Origin: Escherichia phage JLBYU32 | Sequence record: OK272490.1 | Length of the DNA stretch: 64,000 nt | Direction: 5' to 3' (one strand) | Part shown: in pieces, positions 56,100 through 58,020 of the stretch | Numbering within the stretch: the stretch's first letter is position 1 | Layout of the letters: each line of letters opens with the position of its first letter | Translations under genes and position numbers: made by a program | Notes under the pieces: generated by a model | What the model was told of the DNA's origin: nothing | The model's database searches: none | What the model saw: only the letters and a program-made list of their open reading frames with translations

Positions 56100-56590
56100 T
56101 TATATTAAATTTTGTATTACATTGAGTATAAAAATAAGCTATAACACCTGACTTGTCAACAGACTTTATAGCTTATTTGGCAGATTTTTTATAAGGCTAC
56201 TGCCATCCTTCCATACCCTACCTTACCACACCTAACCATACCTAACCAAACTACACCATACAATACCTTGTTAAAAGACCCTATTTAAAGACCTTTTAAA
56301 AAGGTAAGTCTCATTTTAATGTAGCTGAGACTAACTACCCATACCGAACAACACCGCGCTATACCTTAGCCCACCTCACCGAGCCTCGCCCCACATCACT
56401 TAAAAACCCTCTTAGAAGACTCTTAAGTGATGTAATCGGATTTTTATGTAGCTCCGATTAACTACCCATACCAAGCCTAACCTGACCGCACCAAACCTTA
56501 CAACACCACACCATACCTGACCATACCAAACCTCATTAAAAGACCCTGTTTAAAGACCTTTTAAAAAGGAGCCTCCGAAGAGGCTACCTA
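56100..56590. repeat. ORF-free C/A-rich repeat region, copy 1
   Basis: shares ~70-bp block TTAAAAGACCCT.TT.AAGACCTTTTAAAAAGG(TAAGTCTCATTTTAATGTAGCTGAGACTAACTACCC) and CACTTAAAA.CCCT.TTA.AAGACTCTTAAGTGATG with 57650-58020. Confidence 0.7.
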
Positions 56591-56596
56591 GTCAAC

Positions 56597-57037
56597 TTAG
56601 AAAGGTTTTCTACGTTGCTTGTTAATGTTAGCTTTCATAGCAGCTAAATGGTTTTGCTGTTCAATCAGTCGTGAACGTTCTTGATGGCTAAGTGCCATAG
56701 TGTTCACATTCTCAATCGCTTGAGTGGCTTGCTTTAAAGCCCGACCAATCTTACCAGACATTTTACGTTTTGCAATAGTTGCTTGATGTTTAGGTTCAAC
56801 CACACGATAACCAACACCCATTGAAGCAACCAGATAAATCTTCTCTTCTTTAAGAAGCTTTTCAATAAACTTCTCAAGTCGGTTTAGACGTGTAAGTGCA
56901 TAAGCCTTCATTTCATCTTCGTACTTAACAATGTCGCCTTGATAAGTTGGCTTCACAATACCTAAGAAGGTATCCATCTCAGAATGTGATACAGTGTCAC
57001 CGTAACTAAACTTTGCTGCTAATGCTTTTGTATTCAT
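56597..57037 (-). CDS. hypothetical protein
   Basis: ORF. Confidence 0.5.
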   Translation of the reverse strand: MNTKALAAKFSYGDTVSHSEMDTFLGIVKPTYQGDIVKYEDEMKAYALTRLNRLEKFIEKLLKEEKIYLVASMGVGYRVVEPKHQATIAKRKMSGKIGRALKQATQAIENVNTMALSHQERSRLIEQQNHLAAMKANINKQRRKPF

Positions 57038-57039
57038 AA

Positions 57040-57642
57040 TTAAACGTTACCTTCTGAAATAACTTCTACAGAAAAACGACCAAAGCGTGGACGCCAATCA
57101 CCTACACCGCAAAGGTTACCAGCATTTTCCAGAACCATCAAGAGTTCTTCTTTGGTGATTTGCTCTTCATCGAACATCAAACCGAACTCTACAGACCAGT
57201 CACGGAAGATTGGGCGGTAGCTCATAACTCGTGCTGTACCAATCTTAACAGACTTAGCATAGATAAAGTCTGGATTCTTAGCGAGTTCTTGTGGGTTTGC
57301 TGGGCAGTTCTTGATAGTCATTGGGAAGACTACATCTGTCAGCATAATGGCTCGGTCAATTACCTTACCAAGTTTGTTGAGTTTTGCACCAGACTTGATA
57401 CAAGCCTCAATCATCTCACCGTTCATAACAAAACCTAGTTGCTCATCGTAGTAACAAGAAGTTACCAGTTGGCTTTCTGCTAAGAGCGCATAGTCTTCGT
57501 CAGTCTTTTTACGTTTACTGGACAGAGACTTGTGATATTTTGTCAGAGGGTTTAATGGGTCTGACAACGTATCAGCGTGGCTCAGGAAAGGACGAGTACC
57601 AGTGATTTTGATATTTAACAGTTTCATAGCATTTAGCTCCAC
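57040..57642 (-). CDS. hypothetical protein
   Basis: ORF. Confidence 0.5.
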
Positions 57643-57649
57643 ACTTTAG

Positions 57650-58020
57650 TTTATTGTTAAGTTGTTTGTAAAGAACCCTCAACAGAAGACTCTTTAGAAA
57701 CTTGGTAGATTTTTAACGTGGCTACTACCATCCACCCATACCAGACCTAACCACACCTCACCCCACCTGACCCATACCTCACATTACCATACCAAACCAG
57801 ACCCCACCTCATTAAAAGACCCTCTTAAAGACCTTTTAAAAAGGTAAGTCTCATTTTAATGTAGCTGAGACTAACTACCCGCACCTTACCAAACCACACC
57901 ATACACCACCGAACCGAACCAAACACTACCTTACCGGACATCACTTAAAACCCTTTTAAAAGACTCTTAAGTGATGCTGGTGAGTACCCGTTGGTTTATG
58001 ATGCTCAGTATACTCACCAA
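57650..58020. repeat. ORF-free C/A-rich repeat region, copy 2
   Basis: near-identical blocks to 56100-56590. Confidence 0.7.

Follow-up and report, generated by a model that had tools for sequence, protein, structure and literature searches.

A very probable type II VIPR locus with five guide codes in the Felix O1-like Escherichia phage JLBYU32

VIPR is a phage RNA-guided DNA-silencing system that was first described in 2026, in two preprints (bioRxiv 10.64898/2026.04.26.720920, 10.64898/2026.04.26.720927), from which the account of SUSP1 in this paragraph is taken. The SUSP1 vrRNAs are expressed as discrete RNAs of ~100 nt and co-purify with the protein Vipr, as seen by small-RNA sequencing and pull-down. 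Their NN dinucleotides specify the DNA target with one skipped base per unit, and the system represses transcription of matching DNA in GFP and phage assays. Cryo-EM work on SUSP1 Vipr describes residues, including H17, D177, R138, W178, K33, K82 and R39, that read GGY and hold the DNA, and the VIPR discovery preprint reports for the SUSP1 system that the accessory protein Vap1, a predicted DNA binder, increases protection. The guides of the SUSP1 clade target a satellite with a baseplate homologue, satellites encode vrRNAs of their own, and a descent of the CRISPR RAMP effectors from VIPR has been proposed. VIPR is a newly described mode of RNA-guided DNA recognition, in which the guide is built of tandem pentamers with two coding bases per unit.

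Here we analyzed a window of 64,000 nucleotides from Escherichia phage JLBYU32 (sequence record OK272490.1) and found at 56–58 kb, on the minus strand, a locus that we assign with high confidence to the type II (SUSP1-clade) VIPR systems of Felix O1-like phages. The system is already described in the 2026 preprints, so that the locus is of a known kind, and real. The protein identities, RNA anatomy, conservation pattern and predicted targets are our own; vrRNA expression, ribonucleoprotein formation, the skip rule and silencing are taken from the preprints on SUSP1, whose locus is 96% identical. Given this DNA identity, we infer that vrRNA expression, Vipr binding and silencing would take place in JLBYU32 as they do in SUSP1. 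The window adds five new guide codes, and it supports both the 1-nt-skip rule and satellite targeting by an independent computational route.

Two regions, 56087–56596 and 57643–58030, flank a pair of genes in the window. An earlier note on this DNA had described them as sharing long, near-identical blocks, and a repeat search between the regions confirmed this beyond chance: the blocks are 80 nt at 89% identity (56285–56364 and 57825–57904), 71 nt at 79% (56177–56247 and 57702–57772) and 30 nt at 93% (56403–56432 and 57947–57976). Also correct was the statement that both regions lie between minus-strand genes and contain no open reading frame, apart from a single spurious 39-aa GTG ORF. The note had further taken the regions for a duplicated repeat of ~400 bp bracketing two genes; the bracketing holds, but the regions are not two copies of one unit. 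They are related arrays of five modules, all on the minus strand, three of them downstream of vap1 (56178–56569) and two upstream of vipr (57703–57976). Each module, ~90–140 nt long, consists of an AT-rich palindrome, 10–14 degenerate GGYNN pentamers and a conserved hairpin/pseudoknot tail; the modules share two types of head and two of tail.

The richness of the plus strand in ACC proved to be a strict 5-nt periodicity. The pattern ACCNNACCNNACCNNACC (ACCNN x4) occurs 15 times in the 64 kb, every time within the two regions, where shuffled sequences (n = 100) lead one to expect 0, and the repeat search returned a 21-copy family with a spacing of 10 or 15 nt. A period-5 GG scan of the whole 64 kb found exactly five tracts, all at this locus and all on the minus strand. 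This distribution bears on the idea that the modules are selfish miniature repeats, MITE- or REP-like and functionless, that have spread into intergenic DNA. Such an origin would suit the palindromes inside the modules and a module number that ranges from 1 to 5 per side among close relatives. Selfish repeats would hardly be confined, however, to a single locus in 64 kb, always in gene-sense orientation and adjoining vipr; a BLAST search with the vrRNA scaffold gave no match in 5,426 complete E. coli genomes, and the variable bases agree in frame with genes of the satellite (see below). We consider this explanation extremely improbable.

An Rfam scan at gathering score returned nothing at 56–58 kb, the window giving 23 tRNAs only; these tRNA genes are arrayed at 23720–28637 on the plus strand. 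The annotation of the record at the locus consists of automatic repeat_region features and nothing further, and the PhageMaP paper on Felixounavirus Bas63 is silent on this locus.

We scanned IMG/VR for the pattern GGTNN x6 and obtained more than 120 loci, many of them unrelated contigs bearing clustered degenerate tracts; ~30 loci found by the pattern only encode Vipr homologues, with 21–49% identity. In the other direction, distant Vipr homologues (37–40% identity) found by protein search are flanked by sense-strand tracts. This two-way association argued for a protein–RNA system, and we reached it independently, ahead of finding the VIPR papers, to which we were led when a profile search of PDB sequences matched entry 36pp. 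Because the tracts were thereby tied to a RAMP gene, and in view of the 36pp match, we dropped our early non-guide hypotheses, namely a G-quadruplex array, an R-loop origin, a TRAP-like attenuator, a Rho-evading leader or antisense rut site, Chi-like sites and a sponge for tRNA CCA ends. Much larger VIPR arrays lie beside distant Vipr homologues in two unrelated IMG/VR contigs. L030 (2150–3400) has ~14 tandem vrRNAs, each ending in GGTAAGGTAAGGAATGG plus TTTAATGAATTTAATTT, and the units of L018 (3300–5300) end in GGTAGGGTAGGG plus a T-run, some of them directly 5′ of a ribosome-binding site and ATG.

The bracketed genes are vipr (57040..57627, minus strand), encoding a RAMP protein of 195 aa, and vap1 (56597..57037, minus strand), encoding a Vipr-accessory protein of 146 aa. 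Pfam contains no domain for either product, and PHROGs places them in families of unknown function only (phrog_4652 and phrog_5926, respectively). Vipr is identical at 192 of its 195 residues (98.5%) to PDB 36pp, ‘SUSP1 Vipr protein’ (E = 8.5e-129), and none of the three differences falls on a functionally described residue. We read the window protein directly against the residues validated or described in the cryo-EM paper and found H17, K33, R39, E71, M72, K82, G87, K88, R138, C173, D177, W178 and R179 all kept in place. An AF2 model of Vipr (pLDDT 95) had Csm3/Cas7 subunits as its best PDB matches in Foldseek, with probability 1.00; Cas6 and the Cas7 subunits of type VII complexes were also among the top matches. 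As modeled, Vipr is a minimal RAMP protein with an RRM core, a glycine-rich loop and a thumb. Vipr belongs to a family of more than 520 members, whose conserved motifs are ITGTxPLLMH, one 10-residue motif and one 12-residue C-terminal loop motif, the latter kept family-wide. Vap1 is identical to SUSP1 AVU07_agp038 at 145 of 146 residues (99.3%).

The locus combines Vipr and its key residues with GGYNN tracts, a tail hairpin/pseudoknot, predicted targets that obey the skip rule (for three of the five guides), no self-targeting above background in the 64 kb and a minimal gene content, in which vipr and one vap gene stand between long non-coding vrRNA regions; these are the features of type II VIPR. 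There is no CRISPR array, no other cas gene nearby, and neither the repeat-spacer organization nor the cas1/cas2 pair of a CRISPR-Cas system. The neighbors encode DNA ligase, an HTH regulator and small proteins of unknown function. Nothing contradicts the VIPR assignment.

Read in gene sense along the minus strand, the order of elements is P1, head-1, B1, head-2, B2, vipr, vap1, hairpin, head-2, A1, head-1, A2, head-2, A3 and P2, with the DNA ligase gene upstream and a 127-aa gene (p127) downstream. P1 (58007..58034) is a predicted, near-consensus sigma-70 promoter, TTGACA-16 nt-TATACT, with an 11/12 consensus match; its sequence is identical in SUSP1 and kept in relatives without vipr, and it presumably drives the upstream vrRNAs together with vipr-vap. 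The regulatory reading in the earlier note stands to this extent, that a strong sigma-70-like promoter sequence precedes the first array. Its notion that the modules themselves are duplicated cis-regulatory elements does not, as they are vrRNA guide genes around vipr and vap1. At the other end, the promoter-like P2 (56131..56159, minus strand), TTGACA-17 nt-TATTTT, would serve the 127-aa gene and forms the 3′ boundary of the locus; its conservation likewise extends to SUSP1 and to the relatives without vipr. Two further inverted repeats accompany the promoters: GGTGAGTA...TACTCACC (57979–58018) covers the −10 region and start of P1, and AAGCTATAA...TTATAGCTT (56136–56174) lies on either side of the −35 hexamer of P2. 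Since both are conserved in SUSP1 and in the vipr-less relatives, they may be operators. A basic 62-aa ORF (58031–58219, minus strand; phrog_5428) lies between ligase and P1, with its stop codon within the P1 spacer. The vipr-less locus L042 lacks this ORF, and the ligase stop codon there adjoins the promoter.

All the vrRNA genes and their heads are on the minus strand. The head of type 1 (57939..57976), a palindrome CATCACTTAAG...CTTAAGTGATG preceding B1, is the CACTTAA...TTAAGTG inverted repeat of the earlier note. It is present in both regions, as claimed there, and its computed fold is a hairpin of 19 bp (−19.2 kcal/mol, z = −5.97); the same element precedes vrRNA1 of SUSP1. B1 (57847..57935) has 11 GGYNN units with the NN code AA AG TT TC TC GG AT GT TT AA GC, followed by a type a tail. 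The head of type 2, ACCTTTTTAAAAGGTCTTTAAGAGGGTCTTTTAATGA (57809..57845), precedes B2 and recurs at 56533–56569 and 56268–56305. B2 (57703..57808) has 14 units, one of them of 6 nt, with the code GG CT TT AT AA GA AT CA GG GA GT TA CT AT, and a type b tail (GGGTGGATGGTAGTAGCCACGTTAAAAATCTACCA). Directly 3′ of the vap1 stop codon is a terminator-like hairpin, AGCCTCTTCGGAGGCT followed by a T-run (56570..56585, minus strand), identical in SUSP1. Behind it, the head-2 copy at 56533–56569 leads into A1 (56434–56532), whose 13 units read TT AT CA AT GT GT AA TT GC CA TA TT AT and end in tail a with the variant stem AATCGGA/TCCGATT. A second head-1 (56393–56433) leads into A2 (56307–56392), with 10 units, some with a degenerate GGY, reading GA TC GA GG AA AT GC GT TC AT, and tail a. 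The last head-2 copy (56268–56305) leads into A3 (56178–56267), with 11 units reading AT AT GT TT TA AT TA GT AA AG AT, and tail b (GGAAGGATGGCAGTAGCCTTATAAAAAATCTGCCA). The five tracts thus hold 10–14 units each, the published range for vrRNAs being 9–16 YNNGG repeats.

Tail a is GGGTAGTT, with a 7-bp stem AGTCTCA/TGAGACT and the loop GCTACATTAAAA; a GUAG upstream of it can pair with CUAC of the loop. Tail b is of the form GG-AAGG/GUGG-AU, with a stem of 5–6 bp and a loop containing CCUU or CCAC. RNA folding returned the tail-a hairpins as predicted, and we infer the tail pseudoknot from the complementarity and from the cryo-EM report. The tails of the window and of SUSP1 are identical or near-identical. 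AT-rich palindromes stand between successive vrRNAs (head-1 twice, head-2 three times), outside the ~100-nt mature vrRNAs; they could be signals for vrRNA processing or termination. The text of the VIPR discovery paper contains no description of vrRNA biogenesis or processing.

We assessed conservation in 20 loci whose Vipr is 97–100% identical, with 77 vrRNAs and 60 distinct tracts. The unit profile over this set has G at 0.78, G at 0.93 and Y at 0.97, with N and N following at 1.90 bits each, and this profile is the published GGY/NN signature. Stems and pseudoknots of the tails change in a compensatory manner among the 20 loci: AGTCTCA/TGAGACT is replaced by AATCGGA/TCCGATT and GGCAG/CTGCC by GGTAG/CTACC in the stems, and AAGG..CCTT by GTGG..CCAC in the tail-b pseudoknot. 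The unit profile is hard to reconcile with an origin of replication, one of the functions that the earlier note had suggested alongside a recombination element. On that view, the G-rich tracts would be a transcription-dependent origin or R-loop element, in which a strong promoter is followed by a two-tier G-quadruplex array on the non-template strand. The strong promoter does lie directly upstream, a GG run recurs every 5 nt in a sense strand rich in G and poor in C, and AT-rich palindromes separate the tracts. However, the variation is strictly at NN while GGY is fixed, and an origin has no need of hypervariable dinucleotides that match a target. Moreover, the tracts co-occur with a RAMP gene in very distant phages, those of SUSP1 are discrete ~100-nt RNAs that co-purify with Vipr, and the NN codes match foreign DNA by a specific gapped rule. 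We therefore regard an origin as highly improbable, and the modules as VIPR guide-RNA genes; neither an origin nor a dedicated recombination site was borne out.

We then compared the guides with the satellite. Using the SUSP1 gene for the baseplate protein as query, we found the satellite in 474 of 5,426 E. coli genomes, and 12 of the 474 copies were scanned for targets. These 12 are ~10-kb islands with serine recombinases at both ends. As a positive control, the SUSP1 guides matched at 20/22, 27/30 and 18/20 NN bases, only when a 1-nt skip was imposed. Three of the five window guides gave satellite matches of at least 80%, again only with the 1-nt skip: B1 (91%), B2 (89%) and A1 (88%). The best B1 match, 20/22, is at 8149–8180 of satellite L157, in an HNH-endonuclease region with the skipped base at codon position 1; the predicted target site is AAnAGnTTnTCnTCnGGnATnGTnTTnAAnGC. 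The highest score was 18 with shuffled B1 guides and 16 with other skip lengths. B2 matches best at 25/28 in satellite L176 (4067–4107), and at 24/28 in three others, against maxima of 20 for shuffled guides and 19 for other skip lengths. Its target is a ~97-aa gene that follows an HTH gene, and the match is in frame, with the wobble base skipped. For A1 the best match is 23/26 in satellite L152 (7563–7600), antisense in a 183-aa gene and again with the wobble base skipped (shuffled guides at most 20, other skip lengths at most 18). Two satellite subtypes are targeted in these predictions, one by B2 and the other by A1 and B1.

The full-length patterns of A2 and A3 had no match in viral contigs in an exact-pattern scan, and the A2 core had none either. 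The A3 core gave 16 matches, all in environmental contigs of 30–37% GC; none of them extends, and we judged them to be chance. For A2 and A3 there is accordingly no credible target in the sequences scanned, namely the viral contigs by exact pattern and the 12 satellite copies. Within the 64-kb window itself, the best self-matches of the guides were 64–80%, none above shuffled guides.

The 6-nt unit of B2 reads GGTATG and is followed by GGTCA (57770–57776). In spite of it, all 14 NN pairs stay in an unbroken 1-nt-skip register on the satellite target, at 24–25 of 28 positions, which suggests that the guide scaffold tolerates a 1-nt bulge, outside the published rule.

The predicted targets also bear on a TRAP-like reading of the tracts, that they are attenuator leaders on which a ring protein binds triplets of a 5′ UTR and controls the two downstream genes in cis. 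The geometry of a triplet with a 2-nt spacer does resemble TRAP sites, and two of the tracts are within the vipr 5′ leader. Three others, however, lie downstream of the operon, the tracts appear to work in trans, with foreign DNA as their object, the protein that binds them is a RAMP with a helical filament and no ring, and a TRAP homologue was not found among the neighboring genes. We give attenuation in cis very little credence and retain the guide-RNA reading.

On that reading, a minus-strand transcript from P1 would cover, in this order, two vrRNA genes, vipr, vap1 and three more vrRNA genes. Mature vrRNAs of ~85–105 nt, with 10–14 GGYNN pentamers and a 3′ hairpin/pseudoknot tail as cap, would be coated by Vipr, the predicted minimal, Cas7-related RAMP protein, with one protomer per pentamer, GGY sequestered and NN facing outward. 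The NN dinucleotides of the filament would pair with double-stranded DNA, skipping every third target base, and this pairing would block transcription of the target. The guides would be aimed mainly at the ~10-kb satellite in the E. coli chromosome. This satellite carries tail genes homologous to those of the phage and probably parasitizes it.

The 2.6-kb region matches 243 phage records, nearly all of them Escherichia, Salmonella or Shigella Felixounavirus. The carriers of vipr-vap number 117, and tblastn places Vipr in exactly those 117 Felix-like records; it finds none at any other site in the vipr-less genomes. Another 106 Felix O1-like records have a compact form, which runs ligase, P1, head-1, one or two vrRNAs, P2 and p127; the vrRNA ends in tail b of the downstream type, and neither vipr nor vap is present. 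We examined this form in L042 (2641–3000) and in six GenBank phages, JH2, SP4, Tf, BPS17W1, FGS030 and RPN213 (L178–L183). The comparison favors the proposal in the earlier note that the intervening genes can be lost by repeat-mediated recombination: recombination between the arrays on either side, as substrates, could have produced the vipr-less junction, or else the junction may be an insertion scar. In about half of the sequenced Felix O1-like phages, vipr-vap is lost and a vrRNA kept.

The scaffolds of these solo vrRNAs are mostly intact, and their NN codes vary among phages. Because promoter, head, GGY scaffold and tail are intact and the NN codes differ, it is conceivable, if somewhat doubtful, that they are functional and not deletion scars, either using, in trans, the Vipr of a VIPR-positive relative that infects the same cell or serving as decoys that titrate a competitor’s Vipr. 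A solo vrRNA is also found in satellite L155 of E. coli GN4751 (5047–5123, minus strand), with 11 GGYNN units, a tail b of SUSP1 type with the variant stem GTCG/CGAC, and then an intrinsic terminator. Since L155 has no vipr, its vrRNA probably uses the Vipr of the helper phage; it agrees with the report that satellites encode their own vrRNAs.

Among the described systems, the locus is closest to the type II VIPR of SUSP1 (PDB 36pp). Vipr and Vap1 are 98.5% and 99.3% identical, and the two-gene unit has 96% DNA identity. Promoter, head palindromes, GGYNN tract design, both tail types, the terminator-like hairpin and the flanking genes, DNA ligase upstream and the 127-aa gene downstream, are the same, and the predicted targets of the guides lie in one and the same E. 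coli satellite family. The two differ in that SUSP1 has one upstream and three downstream vrRNAs (four), whereas the window has two and three (five); all five NN codes of the window are unlike the four of SUSP1, its B2 contains the 6-nt unit, and its phage is placed in Felixounavirus, not Suspvirus. With the Cas7/Csm3 backbone of Class 1 CRISPR-Cas, the system shares the RAMP fold with its glycine-rich loop and thumb, as well as the principle that each protomer takes up a fixed step of RNA and that bases are flipped out periodically. Unlike CRISPR-Cas, the window is without a CRISPR array, cas1/cas2 or other nearby cas genes. The RNA period of VIPR is 5 nt with three bases sequestered, against 6 nt with one flipped in Cas7; its pairing is gapped, using 2 of every 3 bases, and its guide is a tandem repeat, not a spacer between repeats. 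The TRAP–RNA complex of Bacillus, whose sites are (G/U)AG triplets with 2–3 nt spacers, resembles VIPR in having a conserved triplet every 5 nt, in at least 10 repeats, that is read by a protein oligomer. The folds are unrelated, however, and VIPR forms a filament where TRAP forms an 11-mer ring. In VIPR the information lies in the spacer bases, and the system works by targeting DNA in trans.
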